Shown: positions 30,291 through 59,176, counted from the first letter of the stretch. The stretch is DNA of 64,000 nucleotides from Candidatus Desulfobia pelagia (GCA_014382295.1 JACNJZ010000045.1:6017-70016), one strand, 5' to 3'. Numbers and translations: made by a program. The notes: a model not told the origin generated them from the sequence alone.

Positions 30291-30300
30291 TTGGCACTCC

Positions 30301-30454: not shown

Positions 30455-30455
30455 A

Positions 30456-31937: not shown

Positions 31938-31963
31938 ATCTTTAGTTCCTTATCCTTTCCTTT

Positions 31964-33493: not shown

Positions 33494-33501
33494 TGTTTAT
33501 C

Positions 33502-33804: not shown

Positions 33805-34367
33805 TTCTTTCCTCCCCTTGTCAATGACCCTGAACCTTCCTTTTGGGCCATGACAACCTCTTGTTTATCCTGCTTGGCCAGAAGAATTCCGCCAACGACT
33901 GCCACTAGCAGAATCAGAGCGATTATCTCAAATGGCAGAATATACGATGTGAATATTTCAATACCCAGAGCTTTGGTATGAGTTGCCTGGCGGATTGCAT
34001 CCGTGGTCCATTTCCCAGGTGTTCCTAAGCGAAAAGACTGTGTAACCGCTATAAGTATCAAAAAAACCAGGAAGGAGATGAATTTGGAGATATTATGATT
34101 TGCAACAAAACGCTCGGTTTTGATCTCTTGCCTGATATTGACGAGGAACAGCACAAAAAGATACAAAACGAGAATGGCGCCGGCATATACGATAATCTGG
34201 ATCGCTGCCAGAAATTCCGCATTGAGCAACAGGTATAATCCGGCCATATGAAAAAAGAGGACAAGAACGGCCAGAACACTGTGGACAGGATTTCGAAACC
34301 GCACAGCAAGTATGCCGGTAATGACAATCACCAGTGCGCAGTATAGAAAGATAAACTTGCTCAACAT
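33801..34367 (-). CDS. nuoJ: NADH-quinone oxidoreductase subunit J
   Basis: 188 aa, membrane protein. Positioned between nuoI and nuoK with 4-nt and 1-nt overlaps. Confidence 0.8.
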
Positions 34368-35002: not shown

Positions 35003-35018
35003 ATCAATCTGTCTCGAC

Positions 35019-35987
35019 TTAATTTATGACGATCTTGACCAACCCGGTGAAAAAGATATTACCAAGGGCCAGTGGTATAAGAAGTTTCCAGCCAATCGTC
35101 ATCAACTGATCATATCTGTACCGTGGAAGTGTAGCCCGGATCCAAATAAAGACAAACATTATCAGGTACACTTTCAAAATGAACCATATCGGCGGGAAAA
35201 ATGGGACATTGAAGGGTCCGTTCCAGCCCCCCAGAAAGCAGACAACACCAATTGAGGCCATTACGAACATACCGATATACTCAGCCATGAAGAACATGGC
35301 ATAACGCATACCGCTGTATTCAGTGCAATAACCGGAAACAAGCTCCGTTTCAGCCTCGGGAAGATCAAACGGCACCCGATTTGTTTCAGCCAGCATGGCA
35401 ACAAAAAAAACGAAAAATGCCACAGGCTGGGTAAAAATATACATACCGGTAAAAGAGCTGCCCTGGGCTTCCACGATCTGTGTCAAGTTCAGAGAGCCGG
35501 ACAGCATCATGACTCCGACCAGGCTCAATCCCAGGGAAATTTCATAACTGATCACCTGGGCCATTGAGCGCATGCCGCCGAGCAGGGTATATTTTGAATT
35601 GGATGCCCAACCGGCAAGGATTATTCCGTAACTGGCCAGTGAACTCATGGCAAAGATGAAAAGGAGACCGATATTGATATCAGCAAGGGCCCAGCCTTTG
35701 GCAAACGGAAGGACAGCCAGCGAGACCATCATTGAAACAAGGCAAATAATAGGAGCTGCCAGGAAGAGGGGTTTATCCGCCTGTTCAGGAATGATATCCT
35801 CCTTGAAAAAACTCTTAATGCCATCGGCGATAGGCTGCAGAAGTCCATGCCATCCGACAAGCATTGGCCCCATGCGAACCTGCATATGACCGATGATCTT
35901 TCTTTCAAAATACGTGGCATAGGCGACATGCAGCAAAACGACGCCCACGAGAATTGCAATCTGAACCAATAATATAAGAATCTGCAT
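35019..35987 (-). CDS. nuoH: NADH-quinone oxidoreductase subunit H
   Basis: 322 aa. NuoH/ND1 pattern (ERKIIGHMQVRMGP, GLLQPIADGIK, NRVPFDLPEAETELV.GY.TEYSG). Confidence 0.9.
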   Translation of the reverse strand: MQILILLVQIAILVGVVLLHVAYATYFERKIIGHMQVRMGPMLVGWHGLLQPIADGIKSFFKEDIIPEQADKPLFLAAPIICLVSMMVSLAVLPFAKGWALADINIGLLFIFAMSSLASYGIILAGWASNSKYTLLGGMRSMAQVISYEISLGLSLVGVMMLSGSLNLTQIVEAQGSSFTGMYIFTQPVAFFVFFVAMLAETNRVPFDLPEAETELVSGYCTEYSGMRYAMFFMAEYIGMFVMASIGVVCFLGGWNGPFNVPFFPPIWFILKVYLIMFVFIWIRATLPRYRYDQLMTIGWKLLIPLALGNIFFTGLVKIVIN

Positions 35988-36046
35988 TCTGTTTCCTGAC
36001 TCCTGTCTAGTAAATCAGCAACCATTCACCGGGGTATAAATAGCTT

Positions 36047-36108
36047 GGCAAACTCCCTGACTGTAAAAGTTTGCCAGTGCCCCAGCTGGGTGCGGGTGAA
36101 CTTTTACT
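36047..36108. promoter_or_regulatory. Nested hairpins in the nuoD-nuoH spacer
   Basis: TGGCAAACT (36047-55) pairs with AGTTTGCCA (36069-77). GTAAAAGTT (36064-72) pairs with AACTTTTAC (36100-08). These enclose the perfect palindrome CCCAGCTGGG (36082-91). The 3' part (gaacttttactaagcatc) resembles the conserved 3' block of the 2254/30301 repeat. Confidence 0.5.
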
Positions 36109-36114
36109 AAGCAT

Positions 36115-37332
36115 CTATCTGTCACACTCACCCAATACAACATCAAGTGTACCGATTATGGCAATCAGATCCGCCACCATGGCTCCCTTTGCCAGTGTCT
36201 TAAGGGCACCGATATGGATAAAGGAAGGTGAACGAATATGCATACGGTACGGGCTGCCATTTCCGTCACTGATAAAATAAAATCCGAGTTCTCCTTTGGG
36301 AACCTCTGTCGGTACATAGACATCGCCTTCCATAAAGATATCCCGATCCTCTACCAGCTTAATCAACCCCTGACGGGCCGGAGTGTCCACCTCCACCTTT
36401 CTCCCCGGTTTATTCGGCATGACCAGGTCCGGGGCATCATCACCGATAATAGGACCCGGCGGCATCTGTTCAATACACTGACGCAGAATATGATTGGATT
36501 GACGCATCTCCTCCATCCGGCAGCGGTACCGAGCGTATGTATCACCGGTCTCACCCCGGGGAATTTCAAAATCCACCAGATCATAGGCGGCATAGGGAAA
36601 ATGTTTACGCACATCATAGTCGACACCCGAGCCGCGCAGGCTCGCTCCGGTGAGGCAGAGACTGACGGCATCCCTGGCTGACACTGTTCCGACGTTAACC
36701 GTGCGTTTCAACCAGATGCGGTTGGTATCGATAAGGGTTTCATATTCTTCAATATTGGCAGGAAATGCATCGACAAAACGTACCAGCTTCATCATGATGG
36801 AATGGGTTACATCCTGTCTTACCCCCCCCAGTCGGGTATAGGTTGTGGTCAACCTGGCACCGCATAGCTCTGCAAACAGCTCAAGGAGCTCCTCTCGTTC
36901 CCGGAAGCAATAGAGAAATACAGTCATGGCCCCGATATCAAGAGCATGGGTCGCCAGCCATAGCAGATGACTGGAGATTCTTGCCATTTCACAGACCATG
37001 GTGCGTAAATATTTAGCACGCAGAGGCACCTCAATTTTCAGCAACTTTTCGACAGCCTCACAGTACCCGACATTATTGGCCATGGCGGCGATATAATCCA
37101 AGCGATCCGTAAGAACCAAGTTCTGGACATACGTTCGATGTTCGGCCAACTTCTCAAAGCCCCTGTGGAGATATCCTACATGGGGCTCACATTCCATGAT
37201 CGTTTCACCATCCAGATCCAGATCCACACGAAGTACGCCATGGGTGGCCGGATGCTGCGGACCCATCCTGAGTCGATAATGGTCCTCATTGCCGGCGGAT
37301 ACCGGTATATCAACAGTTGTTGCTTTAATCAT
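36115..37332 (-). CDS. nuoD: NADH-quinone oxidoreductase subunit D
   Basis: 405 aa. MGPQHPATHGVLR, HRGFEKL and a C-terminal ...LGECDR, all typical of NuoD. Confidence 0.92.
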   Translation of the reverse strand: MIKATTVDIPVSAGNEDHYRLRMGPQHPATHGVLRVDLDLDGETIMECEPHVGYLHRGFEKLAEHRTYVQNLVLTDRLDYIAAMANNVGYCEAVEKLLKIEVPLRAKYLRTMVCEMARISSHLLWLATHALDIGAMTVFLYCFREREELLELFAELCGARLTTTYTRLGGVRQDVTHSIMMKLVRFVDAFPANIEEYETLIDTNRIWLKRTVNVGTVSARDAVSLCLTGASLRGSGVDYDVRKHFPYAAYDLVDFEIPRGETGDTYARYRCRMEEMRQSNHILRQCIEQMPPGPIIGDDAPDLVMPNKPGRKVEVDTPARQGLIKLVEDRDIFMEGDVYVPTEVPKGELGFYFISDGNGSPYRMHIRSPSFIHIGALKTLAKGAMVADLIAIIGTLDVVLGECDR

Positions 37333-37888
37333 GCCCGCCTTTCTCTTTACTTAAATTGTCATAAAAATCAAATTTACCCAATTCCCGGCTCTTCGCTTTT
37401 AATTCCTCATAGCCGATCCATTCTGTGTCTCCGCGTAAAGGATATTCTTTGCGTAAAGGATGTCCTTCCCAGTCATCAGGGGTAAGGATTCTTCTCTGAT
37501 CCGGATGGGAATTAAAATTGATCCCCATAAGATCATAGCACTCTCGTTCAAGCCAGTTGGCGCCGATCCACAGTGAAGTTATTGACTCGATGGAGCAGTC
37601 ATGTTCCGGCACCTGGACCCGCAGCCGAAACATTTGTTTTTGAGAAATGGAATACAATTGATACACCACTTCAAACCGTTCAAAAAATGGTCCTTTTCTT
37701 TTGGAATTATCCACCCCGCAGAGACACATGAGATGATTCATGTTGCATTCATCCCGCAGAAATCTGCATATCTCAACAATATGGTCACGCTTTACCATCA
37801 CGGCTTTCTGGCCCAAGTGTTCGTAACTCTCCAGCAGATCATCTGGGAATTCCTCCCGTAATTTTTCAACTATACCAGTTGACTCCAT
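37325..37888 (-). CDS. nuoC: NADH-quinone oxidoreductase subunit C
   Basis: 187 aa. [22 protein letters not shown]...[11 protein letters not shown] pattern. Confidence 0.9.
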
Positions 37889-38391
37889 CTCCCCTGCTCC
37901 CGATTAATTTTTTCCTGCAGTTTAATGAGCCCCTCCAGAAGCGCCTCCGGTCGAGGCGGACAGCCAGGAATGTAGACATCCACCGGCAGAAATTCATCTC
38001 CCCCCTGAACAACAGCATAGGTATCAAACACTCCGCCACTGCACGCACATGATCCCATGGCCAGGACATAACGGGGTTCCGGCATCTGGTCATATACGCG
38101 GCGAACCACAGGAGCCATTTTCTTCGATATGGTTCCGGCCAGGATCAGACAATCGGCCTGACGAGGACTGGCGCGAAAGATAACACCAAATCGATCAAGA
38201 TCATTAGTTGAGGCACCGGCAACCATCATTTCAATGGCACAGCAGGCCAGGCCGAAGGTAACCGGCCAGATAGAACCGGTACGCCCCCAGTTGATTATTT
38301 TATTGAGCGGGCCAACCAGGGCACTGGCGCCGGGAATAAACCTGACACCATCCTGTATCTTGACCAGGCCACTGTTATTCATTTGTCCCAT
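37870..38391 (-). CDS. nuoB: NADH-quinone oxidoreductase subunit B
   Basis: 173 aa. [15 protein letters not shown] and GSCACSGG...IPGCPPRPE (N2 cluster ligands). Confidence 0.93.
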
Positions 38392-38753
38392 TGCAGATTC
38401 CCTTTTTTCCAGGCATAGATAAAGCCGACAAGCAGCAAAATAATGAAAATAAACATTTCCACCAGGGCAAACATTCCCAACTTGTCATATACCAGCGCCC
38501 ATGGGTAAAGAAAGATGGCTTCCACATCGAAAACGATAAAAAGGATCGCAATCGTATAAAATTTGACAGAAAACCGCATACGTGGCGCTTCAGTAGGGGG
38601 ATTGCCCGATTCATAGGCCACCAGTTTCTCAAAATAAGGCCGCTGCACCCTGAAATATCGTCCTATCCAGAGTGTGATCACCCCAAAAGCAATACCAACC
38701 AGCAACAGCATCAGTATGGCCAAGTATTCTGATGGTAAAAATGCACCGGGCAT
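38379..38753 (-). CDS. nuoA: NADH-quinone oxidoreductase subunit A
   Basis: 124 aa, three TM helices. YESGNPP and [15 protein letters not shown] motifs. Confidence 0.9.
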
Positions 38754-38884
38754 AATTTTCTCCCTGTTTTAGGTAGTTGGCTGTTTAGGCTGAAGGTTAT
38801 TTTTAGTTTCAATTATATATAATAATAAACATATGCCCATAATGAACAATTTTTCTTTCAGCCTTGCAACCTTTAAATTACCTC

Positions 38885-39391
38885 TTACGATTTGTTTTGC
38901 AGGAGTTGTTCGGCAAATTGCTGTCGTTTTGCTTCGGATGCTTTATCCGGGGTAGTAAACTCCAAACACCCTGACAAGCACTTTGTGACACATGCCGGTT
39001 TAAGGCCCTCATCGATCCTGTCTTTACACAGATCACATTTGCCGACTTTACCGGTCCTGCCGTTCCACTGCGGCACTCCCCAGGGACAAGCCGTCATGCA
39101 GGCCTTGCATCCTACGCAGAGAGCATCGTCAACAAAGACAATCCCGTCTTTGTCACGGCGCTGCATGGCACCTGTGGGGCAGGCTTCCACACACCACGGA
39201 CTTTCACAGTGAAAACAGGCCATATAGACAAAATCTGAAATCGGCATACCGTTCTTTATCCTGGGACCAACCTCCATGATTTTGCAGTAATAGGCATTTT
39301 TGGCTGAGTCGTTTTTATCTTTGCAATGTGCCTCGCAGGCCCGGCAGCCTATACACCGTTCCACCCGCTGCGTTACTTGATATTTACTCAT
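38885..39391 (-). CDS. Four-cluster [4Fe-4S] ferredoxin-type subunit (PsrB/DmsB-like) of a molybdopterin oxidoreductase
   Basis: 168 aa. CIGCRACEAHC, CFHCESPWCVEACP, CVGCKACMTACP and CDLC...C..C groups. No signal peptide or TM segment. Confidence 0.85.
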   Translation of the reverse strand: MSKYQVTQRVERCIGCRACEAHCKDKNDSAKNAYYCKIMEVGPRIKNGMPISDFVYMACFHCESPWCVEACPTGAMQRRDKDGIVFVDDALCVGCKACMTACPWGVPQWNGRTGKVGKCDLCKDRIDEGLKPACVTKCLSGCLEFTTPDKASEAKRQQFAEQLLQNKS

Positions 39392-39454
39392 GGTTTCAAA
39401 CCTCCATTTCTTGATCGTATATTGGATAGGATTTCAGTAAGTTCCATAAAGATA

Positions 39455-41554
39455 TTACGCTTCGGGCGGTTTTTCGCCACGGCTTATGGAAACAAAGGAT
39501 TCACAGAGATTAAGCCCCCCTCCTGCCTCATCCATTTTATCAAGGAGTCCGCTCATCAAACGCTGATCGCTCACTCCCTTGTTATACGTTCTTGTCTGTT
39601 TTGGAACTTGTCGTCCGAAACCATGAACTGTAAAGACAGCTTCAGGATGGATAAAATCGGTTACGTGTGCCGGAACAGTTCCCGTATAGCCGTCTGCACC
39701 GGTCATATTCACCCAGTCGCCATTTTTGATCCCCAACTTTGCTGCCTCAGCCGTGTTGATTGACACATAATTATAGGGCATCATCTCATTTAACAGCGGG
39801 TTATTCTGGGTATGGCTGTGGGTATGCAGGCCGCAGCGGCCAAAAACAAGACGATATTTCCCCTCCGGCGGCGCCTCTGGACTCTCGTACGGTTTTAATG
39901 ATTCCAACCCGGCCTTGGTCAGCTTCTCGCTTACTATCTCAATTTTCCCCGACGGGGTTTTAAATTTTCCTTCTAAGTTGTCAGGCTCTGGCGGAATGGG
40001 TGTATCCGTTAATGAAATAAATCCCTTTTCATCAAAATCCTCAATAGTATATCCAGTCGGTTCAAGCTGCCAGTCCCAAAGCTCCTCAATGGAATTGTAC
40101 GGAAAGTATTCATCTACACCCATTCGTGTTGCCAGTTGCTTAAAAATTTCCCAACTCGGTTTCGTGTCAAAAATAGGGTCGATTGCCTTCTTGCGTCGAG
40201 CGAGTCGTGGTTTCGCTCCTTTCTGCACGACAATGTGATTATCCCGCTCCAGGAAAGTGGCATGGGGAAGAATTACATCTGAAAACCAGCCATATTCGCT
40301 GTAATGAACATCAATGGAAACAAGTAATTCACAATTATTAAGTAATGCTTTTTGCGCCTCCGGATCTGGCATCTGAGTGAAAAGATCATGACGCATGGCG
40401 ACCCAGGCCTTAACCGGATAAGGTGAACCGGTCTTCATGGCCTCAAAATTCAGGTGTGCAAGACCGGGTCCCTTATCAAAATGAGTATATTTTTTACCGA
40501 CACCATCAGCCCTTTCGATGTCAGGTTTTGGGCAGTCAAGTGCTCTCGGACCTTTTTTTCCACAATCTCCGGGTCCCCTTGGAATGAGCAGCCCCCCTTT
40601 CTGTTCAATAGAGCCCATGAGCGCATTGATGGTATGAATGGCGCGGCTGGCGTAAAACGAATCTCTGTAACGGGTAAGCATCCAACCGGGATGGAAAATA
40701 ATACTCGGCCTATCGTCATTAATTTCCCGGACAAAATCCTTAATGGCGCCTTCCTCAACCCCGCACTCTTTTGCAGCCCAAGCCGGCGTATATTGTTCAA
40801 CAAAATCGCTTAATTCGCTGAAACCGGAAACCCATTGACTGACAAAGTCATTATCATAGGCTCCCTCCTTGATGATCTGATGCAGAATCCCAAGGCACAG
40901 GGCATAGTCCGTTCCGGGGCGTACCAGGAAAAATCGGGTTGCTTTGTTACTTGTCTTGGTCTGCCGGACATCCACATAGGTCAGGCGACCGCCGTTATCA
41001 AGCATGTCAAGAACCTGACGGTTTTCGGGTATGCGTAATGAATCAAAGGTGTTGCGGCCAAAGAGGACCAAGTGCCGAGAATTCTTGATATCATACTGGA
41101 AACCCTTTCGGCCAACGCCATTAATTGACAGACTGGCATGATGGGTGTTTCTGCCACAGGTATCATCATGGTTGGTATAATTTGGTGATCCAATGGCATG
41201 GCAAAAAGTTTTATACATATCCTGCCATGGGCCACCCCTCGAAGAAACAACTATAGATTCAGCTCCATATTTTTCCCTGATTCCTTTCAGTTTATCGGCA
41301 ACATAATCAAGGGCTTCATCCCAGCTTGCAGTGCGCCATTTACCCTCACCCCTTTCACCTTGCCGGATAAGCGGTTGCTGCGGTCTCTGCTGGTCTTTAG
41401 TAAGGGCAATCCCGGCTGTTCCCCGTGCACAAAGGGCACCGTTCAACAAATGCGGATTGCCCTCTATCCAGGTTACCTTATTATTTTCAGACTCAACGCG
41501 GATAGGACAACGAACAGTACACATTCCGCACATGGTGTACACAGATTTTTTCAT
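39455..41554 (-). CDS. Molybdopterin (Mo/W-bisPGD) oxidoreductase catalytic subunit, Psr/Phs-like, no Tat signal (start trimmed to MKKSVYTMCGMC)
   Basis: The track ORF is 720 aa. I prefer M22 as the start because AGGAG lies 8 nt upstream. It has an N-terminal CGMCTVRCP...C..G [4Fe-4S] motif and a candidate Mo-ligand Cys in SPNYTNHDDTCGRN, which is Psr/Phs/Arr-type spacing. No RR-type twin-arginine leader is present. Confidence 0.8.
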   Translation of the reverse strand: MKKSVYTMCGMCTVRCPIRVESENNKVTWIEGNPHLLNGALCARGTAGIALTKDQQRPQQPLIRQGERGEGKWRTASWDEALDYVADKLKGIREKYGAESIVVSSRGGPWQDMYKTFCHAIGSPNYTNHDDTCGRNTHHASLSINGVGRKGFQYDIKNSRHLVLFGRNTFDSLRIPENRQVLDMLDNGGRLTYVDVRQTKTSNKATRFFLVRPGTDYALCLGILHQIIKEGAYDNDFVSQWVSGFSELSDFVEQYTPAWAAKECGVEEGAIKDFVREINDDRPSIIFHPGWMLTRYRDSFYASRAIHTINALMGSIEQKGGLLIPRGPGDCGKKGPRALDCPKPDIERADGVGKKYTHFDKGPGLAHLNFEAMKTGSPYPVKAWVAMRHDLFTQMPDPEAQKALLNNCELLVSIDVHYSEYGWFSDVILPHATFLERDNHIVVQKGAKPRLARRKKAIDPIFDTKPSWEIFKQLATRMGVDEYFPYNSIEELWDWQLEPTGYTIEDFDEKGFISLTDTPIPPEPDNLEGKFKTPSGKIEIVSEKLTKAGLESLKPYESPEAPPEGKYRLVFGRCGLHTHSHTQNNPLLNEMMPYNYVSINTAEAAKLGIKNGDWVNMTGADGYTGTVPAHVTDFIHPEAVFTVHGFGRQVPKQTRTYNKGVSDQRLMSGLLDKMDEAGGGLNLCESFVSISRGEKPPEA

Positions 41555-41640
41555 TAGCTTTTCTCCTTTTCGATGAGGGCGATGCTGGCCCACCCCTTGG
41601 CATTCAAGATGCCGCATATACTGTAAACTGTTTTTTTCAT
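41554..41640 (-). other. 28-codon upstream ORF whose start mimics the oxidoreductase start; its TAA overlaps the main ATG (TAATG)
   Basis: The uORF begins ATGAAAAAAACAGTTTACAGTATATGCGGCAT (MKKTVYSICGI...). The main gene begins ATGAAAAAATCTGTGTACACCATGTGCGGAAT (MKKSVYTMCGM...). That is 24/32 nt identity by hand alignment. Confidence 0.4.
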
Positions 41641-41776
41641 AATTTACTCTTTAAACAAATAGTTTCGTCTGATACCGTATAAGGAAAGTTGGGAAATCTT
41701 TCCCGACACCTCAGAATCTACACAGGTATGCCAATCAACAGAACTGGAATGCGAAACATGATTTCAATATGGAAGA

Positions 41777-42133
41777 TTAAGAAAGAACTTTGGCTACCTT
41801 TTCTTCCAGTTCCTCCTTGTCAATGGGCTTGACGCAGTATTCCTGGGCGCCAAGAGCCAGAGACTGGCGTGCTGTTTCAATGGTTGGATATCCGGTGAGC
41901 ATAATCACCCTTATTTCGGGATAAACTGCTTTAATTTCAGCCAACACCTCCACGCCGCTCATCTTTTTCAGTTTGATGTCAAGTATGACGAGATCCACCG
42001 TGTTGGACTTAATAAAATCAATAGCATCTTCCTCTTCAGTAAAGGTATGGACTTCATGGTCCTTTCTTTCGAGGATTCTTTTTATCAGAATTCCGGCATC
42101 ATAAACGTCATCTAATACCATAATGCGTGCCAT
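41777..42133 (-). CDS. Single-domain CheY-like response regulator (start trimmed to MARIMVLDD)
   Basis: The REC pattern is MARIMVLDD...DLVILDIKLKKMSG...VIMLTGY...CVKP. The 51 upstream codons of track ORF 41777..42286 overlap the preceding gene and were discarded. Confidence 0.85.
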   Translation of the reverse strand: MARIMVLDDVYDAGILIKRILERKDHEVHTFTEEEDAIDFIKSNTVDLVILDIKLKKMSGVEVLAEIKAVYPEIRVIMLTGYPTIETARQSLALGAQEYCVKPIDKEELEEKVAKVLS

Positions 42134-42138
42134 TTGAT

Positions 42139-42783
42139 TTACTCCGTCTGATGTACCGGTAACATAGAACCGGTCGAGGGTCTTCGAGCAGACAATCCCG
42201 CCCTGTCGGCAAGAAAACAGCCGATCAACGTAAAAACATATGCAAGAAGAAAGACGACAGTAATACTCACCCCCTGCATAGCCCACCCCTTGTCTGACAA
42301 ATCAATGAGGTAGGGGGAGCCAAATTGGCTGATGAGCTTCTCTGATGGGAAAACAGTGCTCAGCCAATACTGAGAGAGAAAGAGAGGAATCATATACACT
42401 TGCATGTGTCTGGCGAAACGCTGGGCCAGGTACGTGTTGAAATCCTCATCTATTTCATTGTCTGTATACCGGTACAAAGAATCTCGTGCTTTCCAGTCGT
42501 TAAGTAGGTCAATATTCTTCTGCTGTAAACGTTGTGCTGTGAATTTTTCTTTGAACAGTTGATCTCTCTGGACAACCTTCATCCACCGACGAAGAAGTCG
42601 TGACAGCAGAGCGGTAGCCACGGCCACCAGGATGACCTGCCAGAGCACCGGGACATGCAGCACCATAAGGGGCTTGATAATGATCCACTCAAGTCCCATA
42701 CCGATAAGGGTAAAAAAAGGGCTGATCAGAGACTCAAAAAACCAGTCCAGAATGAATATAAATTGCTGAATCAATGTATCCAT
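42139..42783 (-). CDS. Membrane protein of unknown function
   Basis: 214 aa. About 3-4 hydrophobic segments separated by a charged coiled region (KEKFTAQRLQQKNIDLLNDWKARD). I recognise no family. Confidence 0.5.
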   Translation of the reverse strand: MDTLIQQFIFILDWFFESLISPFFTLIGMGLEWIIIKPLMVLHVPVLWQVILVAVATALLSRLLRRWMKVVQRDQLFKEKFTAQRLQQKNIDLLNDWKARDSLYRYTDNEIDEDFNTYLAQRFARHMQVYMIPLFLSQYWLSTVFPSEKLISQFGSPYLIDLSDKGWAMQGVSITVVFLLAYVFTLIGCFLADRAGLSARRPSTGSMLPVHQTE

Positions 42784-42803
42784 AATTGTATGTCAGGTTA
42801 TTT

Positions 42804-42842
42804 CCCCGAAATTCGCCAATAATCCTGTAGCGAATTCCGGGG
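42804..42842. promoter_or_regulatory. 13-bp inverted repeat (CCCCGAAATTCGC / GCGAATTCCGGGG) in an intra-operon spacer
   Basis: Read directly from the sequence. It lies between the TauE-fusion stop (42875) and the next gene start (42783). No U-tract follows. Confidence 0.4.
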
Positions 42843-42874
42843 AATTGTCTTCATTTGTTTCCGGCTAAAATTTC

Positions 42875-44569
42875 TTAGCGCAAGAAAGGAATAGCATTAG
42901 TATACTTCAAGAACACGATAATCAGGGCCAGTGCCAGCATTCGTTTCAAGAAGATTTCCGGAAGCTTTTTCTGGATTTTTGGTCCCACCATACCGCCACC
43001 CATGGCGCCAGCAGCAATACAGGCAGCCATAATCCAGTCAGGTTGATAACCCATCATGGCATATTTGGCGATAGCACCTGTTGAGGTGGCGAAGGTCCCG
43101 GCCAGGGCGATGGGTACGGCCAGATACATTGGATAGCCTGCCATGGTGGTCATGAACGGCATGAACATGAAGCCGCCGCCAACGCCAAAGGAGGATGCGA
43201 TAATACCCATAAGGAGGCCGGCGATCAGCATCATCAAAGGACGGGCGACAAAGGTCTCACCCCAGAACCGCATGTCAAACTTCATGAAATTAAATTTGTC
43301 GAATTCCACCTTGCCAAGTTCCATGGCCTTACCTGTTGCTTTGGCTTCTTTTACTGCCGCATTAAATTTCTGGATTATGGCCTTCATGGCCTTTTTCTTT
43401 TCAATGGATCCCGGCAGCGATTCTATAAAGAGTTTAATGCCGATAACCAGGCAGATGATACCCAAGTAAAATTTAAACGCCGCAAGATTCAAATACTTGG
43501 CCGAAAGGGGGGGGCCAATAAAAAAGGCGCCTAAGACAATACCGATGGCAAAAAAGATGGCAACAGGCCAGGCAAATCTTTTTTCCTTGAAATAGGTCAT
43601 GAGACCGGTAATGGGCGAACACAGGGTCAGGAACAGGTTCGTGGGTTTGATGGTGTTACCGGCATTAATACCGATGGGACCCTTGGTGCCGATGACGGTA
43701 ATCTGGAAGGCTGCGGTGAACAGACCGCCTGCCGCGCCCATGATAACAAAGAGCACGCCAATAATGAAGGAGCCGCCAATAACGATTAGCGGATTCATAT
43801 AGACACTACCGGTTTTAAAGAAGAACGTCGATTTTTCAATGGTAATAGGAGTGTCTATTTTCTCACCGTTAACATAGATTGCCAATTTTGTGTTTGGTGC
43901 CAGGTGTTTATAGGGCGTCATAGCCACAGAGAACTTGCCGGTAGTTTTATCCAGTTTCAAGGAAACACCTTTGTTCCATGCTTCATTCTGGACGCCGGAA
44001 TCGGTCATGATCATCCTGGCATTGCCGCCGCCGATGGGGAGTTCCTTGGCTACGGTGTTGATGCCAAACTTTTTCTCATGGGTAAAGGTCAGAAATTTCC
44101 ATTGGGCCTCGGAGTTAATAGGACCAAGCATTGATTTGACCGCAGGATCGATGTCACCCCATTGCTTGATTTTGTTGACCTTGACCTTAAATTTAAAGGG
44201 CGGGAAGGCAAATACGCCTGATGTCTGGCCCTTATCTGATTCCTTCATTTTGGCCAGATTGTCCGGGACATTGGTGATAACATAGTAGGCTGGGGGAATA
44301 GCTGTATCGCCAAAGGCGTCTTTGCCGTCTTTGCCATTTGTCAGGCGTTTCTTTTCCTTGGGCCCTGGAGCATCAGCAGGTCTGAACATTTTGTCGCTGC
44401 TGACAACAACATACAGGTCCTCACCCGGAGTGATGGTTCCCTCTATACTTACCGGGGTTCCGGCCTTGACTGTAGTTGATCCGATTGTTGCCTGTACTGC
44501 CCAGCACTGTGAAGCGATTGCCAGTGAGGCTATTGCCGCCAGTAAGGCAAGAAGTGAAATTCGTTTCAT
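42875..44569 (-). CDS. Signal peptide + ~260-aa extracytoplasmic domain of unknown type fused to a TauE/SafE-family permease (start trimmed to MKRISLL)
   Basis: An AGGAGG sits 9 nt upstream of the second ATG. The signal peptide is MKRISLLALLAAIASLAIASQCWA. The C-terminal ~300 aa are polytopic with TauE-type motifs (GAAGGLFTA, FGVGGGFMFMPF). Confidence 0.7.
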   Translation of the reverse strand: MKRISLLALLAAIASLAIASQCWAVQATIGSTTVKAGTPVSIEGTITPGEDLYVVVSSDKMFRPADAPGPKEKKRLTNGKDGKDAFGDTAIPPAYYVITNVPDNLAKMKESDKGQTSGVFAFPPFKFKVKVNKIKQWGDIDPAVKSMLGPINSEAQWKFLTFTHEKKFGINTVAKELPIGGGNARMIMTDSGVQNEAWNKGVSLKLDKTTGKFSVAMTPYKHLAPNTKLAIYVNGEKIDTPITIEKSTFFFKTGSVYMNPLIVIGGSFIIGVLFVIMGAAGGLFTAAFQITVIGTKGPIGINAGNTIKPTNLFLTLCSPITGLMTYFKEKRFAWPVAIFFAIGIVLGAFFIGPPLSAKYLNLAAFKFYLGIICLVIGIKLFIESLPGSIEKKKAMKAIIQKFNAAVKEAKATGKAMELGKVEFDKFNFMKFDMRFWGETFVARPLMMLIAGLLMGIIASSFGVGGGFMFMPFMTTMAGYPMYLAVPIALAGTFATSTGAIAKYAMMGYQPDWIMAACIAAGAMGGGMVGPKIQKKLPEIFLKRMLALALIIVFLKYTNAIPFLR

Positions 44570-44707
44570 TGTATTGTCTCCTCCTTTGGTCAATCCGGGA
44601 AAAGTTTCAATCCCGTTCGACTGTATTGTTTAGTACACGTCAGTTGTTTCTTCCCTTTTATGATTTTGTCACAGCACGCATAACCTCCTTTGCAAAGACG
44701 TTTTTGA

Positions 44708-46264
44708 TCATTTTTCCTCCTTATCGATGTTTTGTGTCTCTTTCCGACAGACCGGCAGCAGCACATGAAACGCCGTGCCTGTGCCGTCTTCTTTATTGGC
44801 AGGACTATCGACTGTGATCCTGCCGTCATGTTCCTGAATGATTCCATAGGAGACGGAAAGTCCCAGGCCGGTGCCCTTGCCCACTCTTTTAGTAGTAAAG
44901 AAAGGATCAAAAATTCTACCTTTCACTTCAGGGGGTATCCCCGGTCCAGTATCACGCACCATGCAATCGATCATTTTTTCTTCGGCAAGGTAGGAGGTGG
45001 TTATGGTAAGGCTCCCTCCATTTTCCATAGCTTGATGGGCGTTGTTTATTATATTGAAAAATACCTGTCGTATTTTCCCCGCATCCCCAGGAACAAGAGG
45101 TAAAGTTTCTGCCAAGATTTTATTCACCTGAATATGGTCAATATCAAGAATATGTTCGGTCACTGCCAGCACTTCATTAACGACTTCATTGAGGTCCAGA
45201 TCTTGTTTAAAACCTCCGGATTGTCTGGAAAACTTCAATAGATCGGCAACAATTTTGCGACAGGCCTTGGCTTGCCTTTCAATAACTATAAGGTTCTGTT
45301 TTTCTTCACTCTCTTTTGGAAAATCATCCTGCATAAGTTGGGCGTAGCCGAGAATGATACCCAGCGGTGTGTTGATCTCATGGGCAACTCCAGCTGCAAG
45401 CTGCCCAACTGAAGCCATTTTTTCCTGGCTTACGAGTTGATCTGTCATGGTCTTGAGCTTCGTCATATCTTTTGCAATACCTTCACACCCGATCATTTGG
45501 CCATGTTCATTGCGGATGGCATTCGCTGTAAGTAAAACATGACAGACAGAACCGTCCTTCTTCTCCATTTCAACCTCAAAATCCCGTACAAAACCATTCT
45601 TGTGAAGGGAAAGCAGATACGCTTCAAGAGCATCATCATTCTTAAAAAAAGAATGGATATTTAAATGTTCGGGAAGTGTGTCGTAGCCCATCATATGCAG
45701 GCCACTGTCATTAATGTCTGAAATAAGTCCTCCATTTGAACAGAAATAGACCATATCCTTGGAATTCTCAAAAAATTGCCTGAATTTTTTCTCAGATTGA
45801 GAAAGTTCAGCGGTTCGCTCTTCCACCATTTCCTCTAAATGCAAGTTTAAACGCATCATTTCGTTGGCCGCATTGATTCGTTGTCTGTTGGCGATTTCCA
45901 GCTTCCTGGCGTTACTTTCGACAATACGAAAGACCTCAACACCTTTATGGTAATAAATAGTGACAGCCGAGACGAAAATCATCATCAAGGAGTTAAACCC
46001 ACCGGAGAACGGCGAGATATGTGCCCATATAGCTTTATTGTCAAATATCAACAGAAACTGTTTGACAATATGACCAACCGCCCTGGAAATAGCAAAAAAC
46101 GCCAACGCAATGCTCAGATAATAAAGAAATCCCCAGATGAAATTTTCCGGCTGCTTGCGGGTCAACAAATAGGCATAACGTAAAGAAAGAAAGGAGAGGA
46201 TAATGATCATTAGTGAACCGATGATATCCGCTAAAGTTGTCGGATAAAGAGGTAGGCTGTTCAT
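44708..46264 (-). CDS. Membrane sensor histidine kinase (multi-TM N-terminus, PAS, HisKA, HATPase_c)
   Basis: 518 aa. H-box [14 protein letters not shown]-box [10 protein letters not shown], and G-boxes DTGPGI / GTGLGLS. Confidence 0.9.
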
Positions 46265-46827
46265 TCACCCTCCCCATTACTATCATCGGTTTCAACGGAA
46301 TGATAAAAAGTACGTAAAGCCAGAAACAGGAAAAAAAGAGCGGGAACACTGATCAGGTGATCGAATTTAGCTATATAATAGGCAAGTTTGGCAGAGGAAA
46401 ATGGACCATATATTCTCGTGTATAGATAACTACTCTCGGTATAAAAATCACTTCTATTAATATGAACCTCTATAGTATGGCCGACAAATGCAAGAACATT
46501 CCAGGAAAACATAAAGAGGCAGAAAAGGAGGAGATACCCCCAGCCACGCCCGCTAAATGAATTACGTTTTATGTCCCAGGCAAGATATACCAAGGAAGCC
46601 ATAAAAAGAATATGAGCCAACTGGTGTACGATAAGTCCCTCGGGGGCGTCATGAGTTTGCAGAGCCCAGGAAAGGGATGGGTGTAAAATAATAAAAGCTG
46701 TAGTCAGTATACATAAGAACGTTAAGGGTAGACGGTGGAGTATAAATTTCAAACACCTACCCCTGGTGCAGCAAAAATGATGCACCACGTCGAGGTGCCT
46801 ATAGAAAACTATAAATTCCGTCATCAA
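46261..46827 (-). CDS. His-rich polytopic membrane protein of unknown function, translationally coupled to the kinase gene
   Basis: 188 aa. 4-nt overlap with the kinase gene. About 4 TM segments with conserved-looking His residues (HDAPEGLIVHQLAHILF, VGHTIEVH). The start codon is uncertain (TTG 46827 or ATG 46824). Confidence 0.55.
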   Translation of the reverse strand: MMTEFIVFYRHLDVVHHFCCTRGRCLKFILHRLPLTFLCILTTAFIILHPSLSWALQTHDAPEGLIVHQLAHILFMASLVYLAWDIKRNSFSGRGWGYLLLFCLFMFSWNVLAFVGHTIEVHINRSDFYTESSYLYTRIYGPFSSAKLAYYIAKFDHLISVPALFFLFLALRTFYHSVETDDSNGEGE

Positions 46828-46902
46828 TTGCTATCAGCGATTTTCAAAAGTTGAATTTCTCAAAAAAAACTTCAGAACTAATCATTTCTTCACTACTTAA
46901 AG

Positions 46903-46917
46903 GCAGGAACCATGCCA
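46903..46917 (-). promoter_or_regulatory. Candidate sigma54 (-24/-12) promoter TGGCAT-N5-CTGC
   Basis: The minus strand reads TTTGGCATGGTTCCTGCCTT. GG and GC are at the consensus spacing (TGGCAC-N5-TTGC). It lies ~75 nt upstream of the first gene of the 46827-41777 operon. Two CATGCAAC motifs (47011, 47069) lie upstream, the second inside the dyad GCAACCTTTAAGTTGC. Confidence 0.55.
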
Positions 46918-47089
46918 AACTAGAGAACACCGGTTATCCATGCATACAACAATCTAGTAATATCAAGGTGTTGAATAATATATTTTTCTAATATTAATAG
47001 CTCACCCTACCATGCAACATCGACAGAGTGGTAGCCAAACGAGGGAAAACGGTGAAACAATAAAACCGCATGCAACCTTTAAGTTGCGC

Positions 47090-47725
47090 TACTGTGTCGA
47101 CTTCGCGATTGGCAACTTCTTTCTACCTTTGTCGGTGAATCTCTGGCCCTGAAAAAAGCGCACGATCTTATCCCATCCGGCTTGGCTGGGGCTTTTAACC
47201 AAGCCCTTATGGAACTTGGTGCCCTTGTCTGCCTGAAAAAAAATCCTTCCTGTGACTCATGCCCTGTGCTGGATGGATGTAAAGCCTATAAACTAATGAT
47301 CATCAACCAACGCCCGATTCCTGCTCCTCGTAAAAAAACAATTCAAATCAACATGGCCTGTGGTGTTCTCAAAAAAAAACGGCTTATTTTTACCCAGAAA
47401 AAGCAAAAAAAGATGCCGGGGCAGGTCTCTAAGAGTTTCCAGGCGGACGCCTGAAAGACGGAGAAAAACTGGAAGATACTGTAGTCAGAGAAATTAAAAA
47501 GGAGGCAGAGCTTGTCGTATACAATGTCAGGCCTGGTAAAACAGTACAGCATTCATATATGAATTACAGAGTGACACTGCATGGCTTTTTCTATGACCAG
47601 AAAAAAATGAAGCAATAACCCGTTCTTCATGCTGCCCAGGAATGTCGTTGAGTAAGTAGAGAGGAACTTGACGATTTCGCCTTTCCAACTGGCCACCGGA
47701 AACTTATCAAACTTTTATATGGCTC
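47090..47725 (+). pseudogene. Decayed copy of the 3' half of mutY (frameshifted, no 5' half)
   Basis: Track ORF 47182..47454 (AGAFNQALMELGALVCLKKNPSCDSCPVLDGCKAY...QRPIPAPRKKTIQINMACGVLKK) parallels residues ~165-250 of the intact MutY at 61719-62801. The DNA similarity (roughly three quarters identical by eye) continues out of frame to the mutY end (...aattacagagtgacactgcatggcttttt...ccaccggaaacttatcaaactttta). Confidence 0.8.
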
Positions 47726-47732
47726 TTTCTTC

Positions 47733-47992: not shown

Positions 47993-49663
47993 TTATTTGA
48001 ACTCGACAATCTTGGCATTATCAACATAATCCTTTGTTTCAAAGCCAGTCATGGTGATCATTTTTTTAGTAAGTTCAGCCATCTGCTTCATATTGCGGAT
48101 TATCATATCTAAATCCTCCAGCAAAGCTTCCGACTGGATATCATCACGCATAAGCTGGGCTGTTCCCAGGGCGGCAAAGAGAGGTGAATTCAGCTCGTGG
48201 GCAACAGTTCCGGCTATTTCCAATATGCCTTTAAGCTTCATTCGTTCCATTTTTTCCTGCTCCAATAATTGCTGGGTGGTTATATCTCGGACAGTGAAAA
48301 TAACAAACTCCACCTTGCCCTTGTCGTCTAAAATTGGATAAATAGACTGCTCAAGCCACTGATCATTTCCTTCCTTAACCTTATGAATAGTGGAGGTCGT
48401 CTTCTCCCCGCCAGACAGGATCAGGTCAACCGGACACATAGATTCTTCAGGATTATCCCAAGGTGAAATGAGGTTGTAAGGCCGCCCCAGGACCTCCTCT
48501 TCTGAGAAGGCATTTTCTTCAAGAAATCTTCGATTGGCCATGACTACATGTTTCCGGGTATCCAAGACAATAAGCTGAGCCCACAGGGAATCTATGATAT
48601 TTTGGAGAAAACGTTCATTTGCCTCAATCTGGTTGAAAAGAAGAGTTATTTTCTGATAGGTACGGGCATTTTGAATAGCATTGCCACCTTCCTCAGCCAG
48701 TGTTGCCGCAAAATTCACTTCACTTGAGGAAAAACAATGGTGTTCGGCGGTGAGCAACCTCAGGACCCCGATAATCTCAGGACCGTTTTTAATGGGAACA
48801 GCCAGAATGCTTTTAATGCCCTCTTTCTCCATGGAATCGTGATATCTCACCCGGGCATCATTGGAGGCATCATAGATTGCCACTGGTTCACCTTTCAGCA
48901 CGTCAAAAATGGAGTTTTCCCTTTTAACTTGGCCACGTTTCAAGTATTCGTCTGAAAGACCTGTGGCAGCCACCAGTTCCAGCTGATTAGTTTCAGGCTG
49001 GAGCAGACGAATAGTGCAGGCTTTCATTCCCATGACTTTAGGAAGTTTGTCAACAATGGTTTGTAAAATTTCATTCAGATTAAGGGTGGAATTGACCAGA
49101 CGGGATATTTCTTTCACTTCCTGGAGAAAATCCACCTGATTCTCCATCTCTGTAAAAAGTCTGGCATTGGAGACGGCAACCCCAATCTGCTCTGCCAAAG
49201 CCATGGAAAAGGAAATTTCCATGGCCGTGAAAACCCGCGTGCTTCGTGTCAAAAGTCGCATGATACCGATGATATGTCCCTGAAAGGTAATGGGCAGGGC
49301 CAAAACACTTTTAATACTCTCCCTGGCCGCCTCAGCACTGTGCTGATAATGCGGGTCAGTATCCAGAGCAGTTTTCGCTACCGGATTTCCACTCATGATC
49401 ATCTCCATGGATTCTTCAGTATCAATGGAGCCACGGGAAAGATACTCATCAGACAAGCCATGGGCAGCTCCCAGGACAAAAGTGTTCGTACTACTGTCAA
49501 GCAGCCTTATAGTTGCCGCATCAACATCAAGAAGCCCAGGAAGACGATGAACGACCATGTCCATAACCTGCTGGGGGTCAAGTACCATACTGATAAGTTT
49601 GGTGACTTTTTGAAATATCTTGAGGTATTCCTGTTCCGTGCTGGGGACTGTTACAGTTTTCAT
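47993..49663 (-). CDS. GAF-GAF-PAS-HisKA(DHp) signalling protein lacking an ATPase (HATPase_c) domain
   Basis: 556 aa. Two GAF-like blocks (each with AA.GLSDEYL), then a PAS-like block, then the H-box AGTVAHELNSPLFAALG. The protein ends ~75 aa later with no N/G1/G2 boxes. Confidence 0.75.
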   Translation of the reverse strand: MKTVTVPSTEQEYLKIFQKVTKLISMVLDPQQVMDMVVHRLPGLLDVDAATIRLLDSSTNTFVLGAAHGLSDEYLSRGSIDTEESMEMIMSGNPVAKTALDTDPHYQHSAEAARESIKSVLALPITFQGHIIGIMRLLTRSTRVFTAMEISFSMALAEQIGVAVSNARLFTEMENQVDFLQEVKEISRLVNSTLNLNEILQTIVDKLPKVMGMKACTIRLLQPETNQLELVAATGLSDEYLKRGQVKRENSIFDVLKGEPVAIYDASNDARVRYHDSMEKEGIKSILAVPIKNGPEIIGVLRLLTAEHHCFSSSEVNFAATLAEEGGNAIQNARTYQKITLLFNQIEANERFLQNIIDSLWAQLIVLDTRKHVVMANRRFLEENAFSEEEVLGRPYNLISPWDNPEESMCPVDLILSGGEKTTSTIHKVKEGNDQWLEQSIYPILDDKGKVEFVIFTVRDITTQQLLEQEKMERMKLKGILEIAGTVAHELNSPLFAALGTAQLMRDDIQSEALLEDLDMIIRNMKQMAELTKKMITMTGFETKDYVDNAKIVEFK

Positions 49664-50518: not shown

Positions 50519-51737
50519 GGACTTTCTGAATAATACAGATTTGAGGTCACAGTTTACAGATCAAGTGAAAATTTGAGTTTTTTTAATCAGAACCCACGAT
50601 CACAATCGACATTTTAAACTCAATTTTTTCTGTTTTGCTGCCTTTGTGCAGCGTTTTATAATTTATTTGCACCTTTTGACGGACTGCTCCTATTAAATCG
50701 GGGCCAGTAGTATTTTTTTTCGAACTCGAAACAGATTATAAAGCCCGAATAACAAATGTAATTGGCCTGCATTTTTCGCAAGGCCTCGGTAACGGGTTTT
50801 ACGATAGTTCCATTGGCATTTAATTACTTGAAAAGGGTGTTCGACAATAGCTCTTGCTCTTGAGAGTTTACGGTTTCTCTTTTCTTGGGAACTGGATAAG
50901 GGATTATTGCGACTCGCTTTGTCCAAGATTCCACAAAAGATGCCCTGCTTTCGAAGATCTCGTTTACGAGAAGAATTGAAGTAGCCTTTGTCGCCAAGAA
51001 TTGCTTTCTCCTCTCCATGCAGGAGTTCTTCAAACTGGCGTGTATCATGAATCTTGGCAGTTGTTGTGCTCAGGTTGTGCACCAGGCCTGACTTAGGATC
51101 AACACCGACATGGGCTTTCATCCCGAAGTGCCACTTGCCGTTTTTCTGGGTTGAACTCATTTCAGGGTCACGCTTGCCACTTTGATTCTTGGTGCTGGAA
51201 GGAGCAGCTATTAATGTCGCATCAACAGCAGTACCTTCTTTCATGAGCAGGCCTTTTTGTTCGAGGTGTTCATTTATTGTAGAAAGAATTTTTTCGAAAA
51301 GATTGTGTTTATGCAAGAGATTACGGAACTTGCAAACTGTTGTTTCGTCGGGCACTGACTCTGTAAGAATGTCGATAGATAAAAACTTTTGAAAGGAGTT
51401 TCTGTCGTAGATTGCATCTTCAACAGCGGGATCGGACAAATTGTACCACTCCTGAAGGCAAAGTATACGCAACTTCCTTTCTATATCAATGCGTTTTCTG
51501 CCGGTCTTTGGTTGTTTATGATATGGTTTTATAATAGCGCAAAGTTTCTTCCAAGGAACAACTTGGTCCATCTGGTTTAAGTATTTCTCACAACGAAGTG
51601 TTTTGCGATATAGTGCTATCGAAAGTAGGCTTAGCTGACTCATTTTACCCTCCGCATCATGTTTAACATGTTGAAATAATTATAAACTATGCGGATATAT
51701 TGTAACCTTTATTCTGAATAGTTTTTCAGAGGGTCCT
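50519..51737 (-). mobile_element. Intact IS5-family insertion sequence (~1.22 kb) with terminal inverted repeats and a 4-bp TTTA target-site duplication
   Basis: The left end is GGACTTTCTGAATAATA. The reverse complement of the right end is GGACCCTCTGAAAAACT (13/17 identical). TTTA flanks the element on both sides (50515-18 and 51738-41). It contains a single transposase ORF. Confidence 0.8.
50693..51643 (-). CDS. IS5-family DDE transposase
   Basis: 316 aa. The typical IS5 pattern runs from ...VPWKKLCAIIKPYH....GRKRIDIE..LRILCLQEWYNLSD to AVDATLIAAPSSTKN, HFGMKAHVGVD, ILGDKGY and RARAIVEHPFQVIK (DDE with Y-R-E region). Confidence 0.9.
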   Translation of the reverse strand: MSQLSLLSIALYRKTLRCEKYLNQMDQVVPWKKLCAIIKPYHKQPKTGRKRIDIERKLRILCLQEWYNLSDPAVEDAIYDRNSFQKFLSIDILTESVPDETTVCKFRNLLHKHNLFEKILSTINEHLEQKGLLMKEGTAVDATLIAAPSSTKNQSGKRDPEMSSTQKNGKWHFGMKAHVGVDPKSGLVHNLSTTTAKIHDTRQFEELLHGEEKAILGDKGYFNSSRKRDLRKQGIFCGILDKASRNNPLSSSQEKRNRKLSRARAIVEHPFQVIKCQWNYRKTRYRGLAKNAGQLHLLFGLYNLFRVRKKILLAPI

Positions 51738-59170: not shown

Positions 59171-59176
59171 TATATT

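Follow-up and report, generated by a model that had tools for sequence, protein, structure and literature searches.

A conserved Desulfobulbales gene module with a candidate sigma-54 control region and a DUF8269-TauE fusion permease

A 64,000-nucleotide (nt) stretch of the Candidatus Desulfobia pelagia genome (GCA_014382295.1 JACNJZ010000045.1:6017-70016), hereafter the window, carries five co-directional genes at 41777-46917 behind a candidate sigma-54 promoter, the central gene fusing a periplasmic domain to a TauE permease. On comparison with related genomes, this locus is the local copy of a conserved, uncharacterised gene module specific to the Desulfobulbales. The observation made in the original prediction, which had been drawn from the window sequence, was confirmed as real, and its regulatory reading is supported by phylogenetic footprinting. 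Comparison of sequences established the position of the predicted promoter, the putative enhancer motif, the identity of the candidate activator, the reality of the fusion and the linkage of the genes; we infer what signal is sensed, which substrate is carried and in which direction, and what a DUF106-like protein does. On balance, we consider it probable that the module is under sigma-54/NtrC control and that its TauE permease moves a sulfur oxyanion for a cytoplasmic PhsAB-like enzyme. The genes and sites at the centre of this explanation are:

46261-46752 (open reading frame, ORF, to 46827), minus strand: gene 1, His-cluster membrane protein, defined by an alignment of 38 homologues
44708-46264, minus strand: gene 2, sensor histidine kinase with four N-terminal transmembrane (TM) helices and PAS, HisKA and HATPase_c domains
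42875-44569 (from the ATG), minus strand: gene 3, DUF8269-TauE fusion of 564 amino acids (aa), with signal peptide (1-24), periplasmic domain (25-256) and TauE/TSUP permease
42139-42783, minus strand: gene 4, membrane protein, probably a divergent DUF106/EMC3-TMCO1-like member of the Oxa1 superfamily
41777-42133, minus strand: gene 5, CheY-like single-domain response regulator (PF00072, 88 bits; DD8-9, D52, T80 and K102 present)
46902-46917, minus strand: candidate sigma-54 promoter TGGCATGGTTCCTGCC, with GG at 46915-46916, GC at 46903-46904 and the core TGGCATGGTTCCTGC at 46903-46917
47071-47088, minus strand: upstream activator dyad GCGCAAC-ttaaag-GTTGCA, centred ~-175 from the -12 GC, one mismatch to TGCAWC-N6-GWTGCA
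46767-46784, minus strand: second dyad TGCATCATTTTTGCTGCA, downstream of the promoter at +129 and 15-32 nt before the gene 1 start, one mismatch
46964-46976, minus strand: IHF-like site ATTCAACACCTTG in an AT-rich tract between enhancer and promoter, read from the sequence
60281-61717, plus strand: NtrC-type sigma-54 activator, comprising a receiver with its Asp, Walker A, GAFTGA and a helix-turn-helix (HTH)

Conservation of the module and its predicted control region

All five genes predicted on the minus strand were found there, each of them intact. Their Pfam content comprised a PAS, HisKA and HATPase kinase, a TauE protein and a Response_reg protein, with genes 1 and 4 lacking any Pfam match. 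Of the partial overlaps that had been described, the one between gene 1 and the kinase (4 nt) is genuine but is the only one: the 169-aa CheY ORF was over-extended, its real start being 42133 or 42121, and therefore does not overlap gene 4. The window sequence was identical to metagenome contigs of several samples. To place the locus in context, genomes were scanned with the fusion protein, yielding 166 relatives from which 80 loci were kept, all of them Desulfobulbales-type and including Desulfobulbus rhabdoformis, Desulfosediminicola flagellatus, Desulfocapsa, Desulforhopalus, Desulfopila, Desulfofustis and Ca. Desulfatifera. Gene order was read by tblastn with the window proteins, and the 36 loci with at least 6 kb of flank formed a full-flank subset. 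A recurrent string emerged, running activator, gene 1, kinase, CheY, (molybdoenzyme, FeS subunit), a GAF/PAS/HisKA protein, fusion and gene 4. An alternative layout was also seen: there, gene 1, kinase and CheY form a divergent group, and the activator is followed immediately by fusion, gene 4, CheY and molybdoenzyme.

The window promoter retains the invariant GG (-24) and GC (-12) dinucleotides at the exact 10-nt spacing, and no other GG-N10-GC candidate lies in the stretch from the enhancer to gene 1. The location and dinucleotides of the originally predicted -24/-12 site thus stand, but its rating as a good match does not, the site agreeing with TGGCACG-N4-TTGCW at 9/12 positions and scoring 8.2 bits versus 12.9-21.2 bits for the relatives on a matrix made from the relatives' sites. 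We rate the match as modest because 30 positions in the window (128 kb of sequence scored) reach at least 8.2 bits and the chance of one such site in the 320-nt interval on the same strand is about 7% (p ~0.07). The looser pattern TGGCAY-N5-YTGC occurred twice in the window versus 0.73 expected, the second copy lying inside a nuo gene. A sigma-54-like match inside a nuo gene, TGGCACCGTTACTGC at 32098-32112 (minus strand), outscored the operon promoter at 15.5 bits; it is most likely a chance match because no dyads lie nearby.

Among the relatives, sigma-54-like sites were called with GG and GC fixed and at least 9/12 matches. Such a site was present upstream of the gene 1 homologue in 26 of 38 loci versus 3.3 expected, bearing out the prediction of a sigma-54-type promoter for the operon. 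Where the alternative layout occurs and the activator gene directly precedes the fusion gene, the site is found 80-220 nt upstream of the fusion gene instead. None was found before the molybdoenzyme gene (0/42 loci) and only one before the GAF gene (1/38 loci), within the preceding gene. The predicted promoter therefore appears to track the first gene of the transporter operon. In the window it precedes gene 1, in the order originally proposed, but most likely not at the proposed distance of ~75 nt. Conservation in the 38-homologue alignment begins at a signal peptide ending AWA before (L/V)Q(T/S)H, and initiation at TTG 46752 gives MKFILHRLPLTF...SWA followed by LQTH; this TTG is the most likely start because the signal peptide then ends as in all homologues. 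The 5' untranslated region (UTR) would consequently span ~140 nt, the start being most likely at 46752 and not at 46827. An Rfam scan of 38700-47300 at E<=1 returned zero matches, and therefore neither the 5' UTR nor the region ahead of the molybdoenzyme gene is predicted to contain a molybdenum cofactor (Moco) or other riboswitch. The putative IHF site, with one mismatch to the IHF consensus WATCAA-N4-TTR, offers no more than a weak lead. The D. vulgaris sigma-54 regulome paper makes no mention of TauE or thiosulfate genes.

The GCAAC-N6-GTTGC dyad that had been suggested as an enhancer proved to be a copy of a conserved motif, TGCAWC-N6-GWTGCA, present in 31/31 loci with a sigma-54 site. In all of these, a dyad with up to two mismatches is centred at -118 to -176 from the -12 GC, against a background of 0.25 per kb. 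The dyads of relatives are usually paired at ~-150 and -130, with more copies near -255 and -335. Only two dyads with up to one mismatch occur in the entire window, and both flank the operon promoter. Five other loci (L006, L008, L010, L011 and L018) likewise have a dyad 10-40 nt ahead of their gene 1 start, and the downstream dyad is kept in the subclade nearest the window for gene 1 and the kinase. It looks like a conserved second site, perhaps serving looping or autoregulation.

The regulator at 60281 had been described as an orphan. It is a complete NtrC-type protein and the sole bacterial enhancer-binding protein (bEBP) in the window, as stated, but the comparison indicates that in this genome it is displaced, not orphaned. 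It is the last member of a regulatory trio (56699-61717), whose other members are:

56699-59170, plus strand: first of the trio, PPDK_N/PEP-utilizer swivel-domain protein, 823 aa
59177-60238, plus strand: second of the trio, DSP/PTP-like phosphatase, 353 aa

Homologues of the activator (53-65% full-length identity) adjoined the module in 24/36 full-flank loci, whereas unrelated bEBPs in the same loci shared only 32-42% identity with it. In relatives, the PPDK_N/phosphatase/bEBP trio immediately precedes gene 1 or follows gene 4, and it is also found in the complete genome of Desulfolithobacter dissulfuricans; its conservation suggests an extra layer of phospho-signalling. Recognition helices and half-sites appeared to vary together. 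Half-sites associated with a G-class HTH (G[LM]GRQSF) were of the TGCATC kind (48 T-type, 4 A-type), whereas an E/D/Q-class HTH went with either a mixture or TGCAAC (18 T-type, 34 A-type); the window combines a D-class HTH with an A-type upstream dyad. Since the loci are related to one another, this co-variation is supportive and not a formal test. The assignment of the 60281 regulator as the cognate activator of the operon is supported by the position of its homologues, the shared trio, the co-variation of HTH and dyad, and traces of displacement.

An intact mutY (61719-62801) comes after the activator gene, and a mutY pseudogene (47134-47732, plus strand; residues 159-358, with a frameshift and stop codons) with 71% nucleotide identity to it abuts the enhancer dyad, thereby marking a rearrangement breakpoint. 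A DDE_Tnp_1 transposase of an insertion sequence (IS) element (50693-51643, minus strand) lies between the operon and the activator. The region 26771-46752 is itself mosaic: the fusion, gene 4, FeS subunit and nuo genes are closest to locus L005 (90/80/74/72%; compared with L005/L077 and L006-L011), whereas gene 1, kinase, CheY and molybdoenzyme share 50-70% identity with the other locus type and only 35-58% with L005. The cluster looks recombinant. Alignment of the kinase-transporter gap with the promoter region of L005, the closest relative, revealed neither homology nor a hidden promoter. The transposase gene adjoins a LysR gene and a gene for a Phosphonate-bd/GAF/HD-GYP/GGDEF protein, both absent from related loci.

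Several of these features weigh against sigma-54 control in this genome. The window -12 element, CTGCC, is the weakest of the family and the site taken alone has p ~0.07; there is a single upstream dyad at -175 in place of the usual -150/-130 pair; and the activator gene is 13 kb away on the opposite strand. Given this distance and inversion, and the IS element and mutY pseudogene close by, the latter abutting the enhancer, the control region could be partly decayed. Taken further, it would be a relic, the genes being expressed from a sigma-70 promoter or by read-through and the regulation holding in relatives only, a view to which the mosaic identities and a duplicated 5' stub of the molybdoenzyme gene would also lend themselves. 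We regard this as improbable. The promoter still has its GG/GC dinucleotides at the proper spacing, and two near-perfect dyads survive, one of them the downstream dyad specific to the clade. The activator retains all of its motifs, and none of the five genes is disrupted; in a scan of 41400-47300, sigma-70 promoter-like matches were no commoner than in shuffled sequence. Moreover, bEBPs can act in trans, and the position of the activator gene is therefore irrelevant.

The fusion permease and its partner proteins

The signal peptide (MKRISLLALLAAIASLAIASQCWA, Sec-type), extracytoplasmic domain and TauE permease described for gene 3 were all borne out, the domain measuring ~230 aa. The TauE match (PF01925) scored 96.8 bits versus a gathering score of 32.6 over ORF residues 272-563, and the standalone TauE of the window (25913-26671) has a TauE domain only, as had been noted. 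The statement that the N-terminal domain belongs to no recognisable family no longer holds: precomputed matches place the domain of the window protein and of all homologues in Pfam PF26800 (DUF8269), a family missing from our local Pfam copy, in which the ~230-aa domain had no match. A literature search for DUF8269 returned no paper mentioning it. The family is narrow, with 47 clusters at E<=0.001 among 1.84 billion representative proteins, and nearly always occupies residues 25-255.

An assembly or frameshift artefact, with separate genes in relatives, had been raised as a caveat to the fusion. Some database homologues are indeed split or truncated, such as GF1_10100 (358 aa) followed by GF1_10110, and several have out-of-frame tails; however, the truncated versions break at different points, as sequencing errors would, and are probably errors of sequencing or annotation. 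The fusion is a single uninterrupted ORF in four independent assemblies and is full length or nearly so, at 66-90% identity, in all 80 kept loci, and an artefact was ruled out, its probability being negligible. In D. dissulfuricans (AP024233.1; locus L085, 10001-11691) the fusion is annotated as GF1_10100 (358 aa) plus a TauE half (189 aa). Where a genome has a second fusion gene (L060, 9155-9898; L080, 9208-9957), this copy is without two-component genes and has a Rex-family gene (Put_DNA-bind_N + CoA_binding) directly upstream, preceded in L060 by a gene 4 homologue. A scan of all loci for the canonical Rex operator found no box near the Rex-linked paralogues.

Within the TauE part, fusions share at least 42% identity with one another and no more than 31% with any standalone TauE protein, and we consider the fusion TauE part a clade of its own on this basis. 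It is strongly conserved, with a mean column identity of 76% over 48 orthologues. The DUF8269 domain has an isoelectric point of 9.5, no Cys and almost no His. AlphaFold models, made from alignments shallower than the 48-orthologue set, predicted a mostly beta domain with few helices (pLDDT 82.7), its most conserved loop, FGINT...GGGNAR, being poorly defined, and a full-length protein (pLDDT 86.2) in which TM1 and TM5 are broken at GGG motifs. A central cytoplasmic loop of 60 aa (residues 384-443), lysine-rich and highly conserved, was predicted to form a helix and a small beta sheet, an insertion without counterpart in the TauE model of Pfam. Lys and Arg are distributed as expected for an inverted repeat, a topology that would make the broken helices re-entrant hairpins and place the N-terminal domain outside. 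Foldseek searches of the PDB with the domain and full-length models returned nothing at E<=0.001. Below this threshold, the isolated domain gave generic Ig/Fab similarity only (TM-score ~0.25), and the permease part resembled BacA/UppP (probability 0.98, TM-score 0.54) and NCX.

Gene 4 adjoins the fusion gene in 59/80 loci. It had been listed as an unknown membrane protein; a membrane protein it is, but its homologues now point to a DUF106-like family. PF01956 was matched at E<=0.1 by eleven of 17 homologues, of which only the best (E=1.6e-6; 28.4 bits) exceeded the gathering score of 27.1 bits. The exact window protein is labelled DUF106 domain-containing in UniRef, with an NCBI record from a Desulfobulbaceae metagenome-assembled genome. 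Membership of the DUF106/EMC3-TMCO1 group is probable but not proven, as the window protein itself had no PF01956 match even at E<=10, which tells against the assignment, and a profile of the homologues found no meaningful match among PDB sequences.

Gene 1 encodes a mature protein of ~135 aa with three TM helices and without a Pfam or NCBIfam match. Five conserved His (in QTH, VHQxAH, GH and DH) are all placed at the periplasmic face of this protein, originally described as a His-rich membrane protein. The loops between the four TM helices of the kinase are minimal, and we infer that gene 1 is probably the sensing partner of the kinase, binding a ligand or a metal. The nearest NCBIfam model of the kinase is AtoS, at 265 bits and under the 646-bit cut-off. 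A further kinase-like protein is encoded upstream of the promoter:

47993-49663, minus strand: GAF-GAF-PAS-HisKA protein, 556 aa, without ATPase domain

In 37/80 loci, a full-length homologue of this protein (52-72% identity) lies ahead of the fusion gene, usually directly. By this linkage it is a conserved member of the module, and by its predicted domains it is kinase-like and cannot autophosphorylate by itself.

The His cluster of gene 1 could also be read as the sensor of a metal or metal oxyanion (Zn, Fe, molybdate or tungstate), with the fusion as its transporter. This would be in keeping with the resemblance of kinase and activator also to ZraS/ZraR, with a weak match of the fusion TauE part to MamO, which acts in iron biomineralisation, and with the adjacent molybdoenzyme. 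We find it quite improbable: the periplasmic domain is almost devoid of His and lacks Cys, NCBIfam scores to the Zra and Ato models fall far below their cut-offs, the module is linked to a PhsA-like sulfur enzyme, paralogous loci are linked to a Rex-type redox regulator, and proteomic co-regulation with thiosulfate disproportionation has been reported (PMC13490349).

Operon extent and proposed function

Downstream of the CheY gene lie the genes of a putative sulfur enzyme and a Nuo-like complex:

39455-41554, minus strand: PhsA/PsrA-like molybdoenzyme, predicted to be cytoplasmic, no twin-arginine translocation (Tat) signal
38885-39391, minus strand: 4Fe-4S subunit, partner of the molybdoenzyme
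after 38885 and down to ~26771, minus strand (as the operon): nuoA-N without nuoEFG

The best model of the molybdoenzyme was PhsA (NF012032), at 518.5 bits and below the equivalog cut-off of 694. Its start is at 41554, with the ribosome-binding site in GGAGAAAAGCTAATG, and the N-terminus MKKSVYTMCGMC has no twin-arginine motif. No NrfD/PhsC anchor gene lies beside the molybdoenzyme gene, which is followed by the nuo genes. Linkage of the module to PhsA-like genes is common (24/36 full-flank loci) and to nuo genes rare (2/80 loci). The operon had been thought to end ~160 nt before the molybdoenzyme gene; the gap is instead 222 nt, and the transcription unit probably continues into the molybdoenzyme and nuo genes. 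We base this on the gap, where neither a credible terminator nor a sigma-54 site, dyad or Rfam element was found, on the position of both enzyme genes within the gene string of relatives (gaps of 28-90 nt) and on the absence there of a sigma-54 site of their own. All matches in a terminator scan of 41400-47300 were weak, none clearly an operon end. A 28-codon ORF, MKKTVYSICGILNAKG... (41554-41640, minus strand), lies within the gap; its first 10 residues mimic the molybdoenzyme N-terminus MKKSVYTMCG and its TAA stop overlaps the molybdoenzyme ATG (TAATG). Recombination may have left it as a scar, or it may act as a coupled leader ORF.

Under the proposed explanation, transcription would start at the sigma-54 promoter at 46902-46917 when the 60281 NtrC-type regulator binds the TGCAWC-N6-GWTGCA dyads and activates it. 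The operon would encode its own sensor pair, comprising the membrane kinase and its small periplasm-facing His-cluster partner, creating positive feedback, with the CheY-like regulator as a second output. Its main product would be a TauE/TSUP permease capped by the basic, cysteine-free, beta-rich DUF8269 domain, and the DUF106/Oxa1-superfamily partner encoded by gene 4 may help to insert or assemble this permease. Transcription would run on into the Tat-less PhsAB-like molybdoenzyme and the attached Nuo-like complex, and the permease would move an inorganic sulfur oxyanion across the inner membrane for the cytoplasmic enzyme, import of thiosulfate being preferred. Transport of a sulfur oxyanion is the most likely job given the gene and proteome context and the known anion substrates of TSUP proteins.

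The same module and regulation could serve a permease that exports sulfite or sulfate from the PhsAB-like, Apr and Sat reactions. Export is the main rival to the favoured thiosulfate import, possible in our view but unlikely. A large, conserved and basic periplasmic domain over the permease would better suit capture of a substrate from outside, and some TSUP proteins, such as TsaS, are importers. On the side of export, the TauE/SafE name and known members denote sulfite or sulfonate exporters (Pfam PF01925), and export of sulfate or sulfite was proposed for the TauE of Dissulfuribacter thermophilus by the authors of that study (PMC13490349).

Published proteomes bear on both directions. In D. 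dissulfuricans GF1, the published PhsA-2/PhsB-2 are products of the orthologous locus, and GF1_10080-10120, including the DUF8269 protein, were detected in proteomes of thiosulfate disproportionation and of sulfate reduction (PMC9751629). In D. thermophilus, a Tat-less PhsAB-like enzyme was among the proteins most induced by thiosulfate disproportionation, and a TauE protein, a 'co-occurring transmembrane protein' and an adjacent 'PEP synthase' also rose (PMC13490349). The order of these D. thermophilus genes, which may be homologous, mirrors that of fusion, gene 4 and PPDK_N protein in several loci. Further points count against thiosulfate import and the explanation built on it. Sulfate reduction gave somewhat higher levels of the D. 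dissulfuricans homologues, GF1_10100 among them, than thiosulfate disproportionation did (PMC9751629), as export would have it. Finally, the 222-nt gap before the molybdoenzyme gene separates it from the genes proposed to be co-transcribed with it.

Neither the enzymes nor the transport steps of microbial sulfur disproportionation have been settled, and recent proteomics implicated a cytoplasmic PhsAB-like enzyme while leaving substrate entry and product exit unexplained (PMC13490349, PMC9751629). The module is a candidate for the missing transport step in Desulfobulbales, offering a candidate transporter, a candidate sensor and a regulator whose predicted binding motif would permit regulon prediction. 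A bolder version of the import explanation holds that the DUF8269-TauE protein and its DUF106-like partner are the long-sought inner-membrane transporter of thiosulfate (or polysulfide) feeding the PhsAB-like reductase, switched on by a His-cluster sensor/kinase/NtrC sigma-54 circuit, and that gene 4 is the first bacterial DUF106/Oxa1 protein dedicated to a single client. We put this forward tentatively, as a speculation that is rather unlikely to hold in full.

Relation to known systems

The predicted control region is built like those of NtrC/AtoC/ZraR systems (glnAp2 with NtrC, AtoSC, ZraSR), which likewise have a GG-N10-GC promoter and dyad enhancers ~100-180 bp upstream, often paired two helical turns apart. 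The activator shares the receiver, AAA+ (GAFTGA) and HTH architecture, and the kinase the PAS-HisKA-HATPase architecture. The dyad TGCAWC-N6-GWTGCA also resembles TGCACC-N5-GGTGCA, which we take to be the NtrC site. Nevertheless, the window module is no equivalog of the named systems (AtoC, 427 versus 714 bits; AtoS, 265 versus 646 bits cut-off). It differs in pairing its kinase with a novel histidine-cluster membrane protein and in the extra dyad in the 5' UTR, and it adds a GAF-PAS-HisKA protein without ATPase, a PPDK_N-type protein and a PTP-like phosphatase.

To our knowledge, the magnetosome protein MamO (trypsin-like lumenal domain + TauE) is the only named precedent for an N-terminal extracytoplasmic domain on TauE. 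The weak NCBIfam match of the fusion TauE part to MamO had E=5.4e-7 and 28 bits versus a cut-off of 800; the fusion differs in that its domain is the beta-rich DUF8269 and not a protease fold, and it has no magnetosome context.

With PhsABC and the cytoplasmic PhsAB-like enzymes, the window enzyme has PhsA as best model in common, and it is without both Tat signal and PhsC anchor. Unlike PhsA-2/PhsB-2 and D. thermophilus DITHS69_2027/2028, it is joined to a Nuo-like complex. The D. dissulfuricans publication on PhsA-2/PhsB-2 does not describe the transporter, the DUF106-like gene or sigma-54 control.

The DUF106 group has been described as archaeal and eukaryotic (PMC5868721). Likeness to DUF106/Ylp1/EMC3/TMCO1/Get1 proteins is seen in matches of gene 4 homologues to PF01956 over 10-156 of 169 and in a layout of TM, coiled-coil-like cytoplasmic segment and TM in the gene 4 alignment. 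The similarity is weak, and gene 4 differs in being bacterial and genetically tied to one transporter; the module would put a DUF106-type insertase-like protein in bacteria.

The fusion shares with TauE/SafE proteins (TSUP, PF01925) its C-terminal 300 aa, organised as two repeats, each with a G-x-GGG broken helix. To this common core it adds a signal peptide, the 230-aa periplasmic DUF8269 domain and the 60-aa lysine-rich loop with its small beta element, representing an uncharacterised type of TSUP permease whose periplasmic cap domain has no structural relative in the PDB at E<=0.001.

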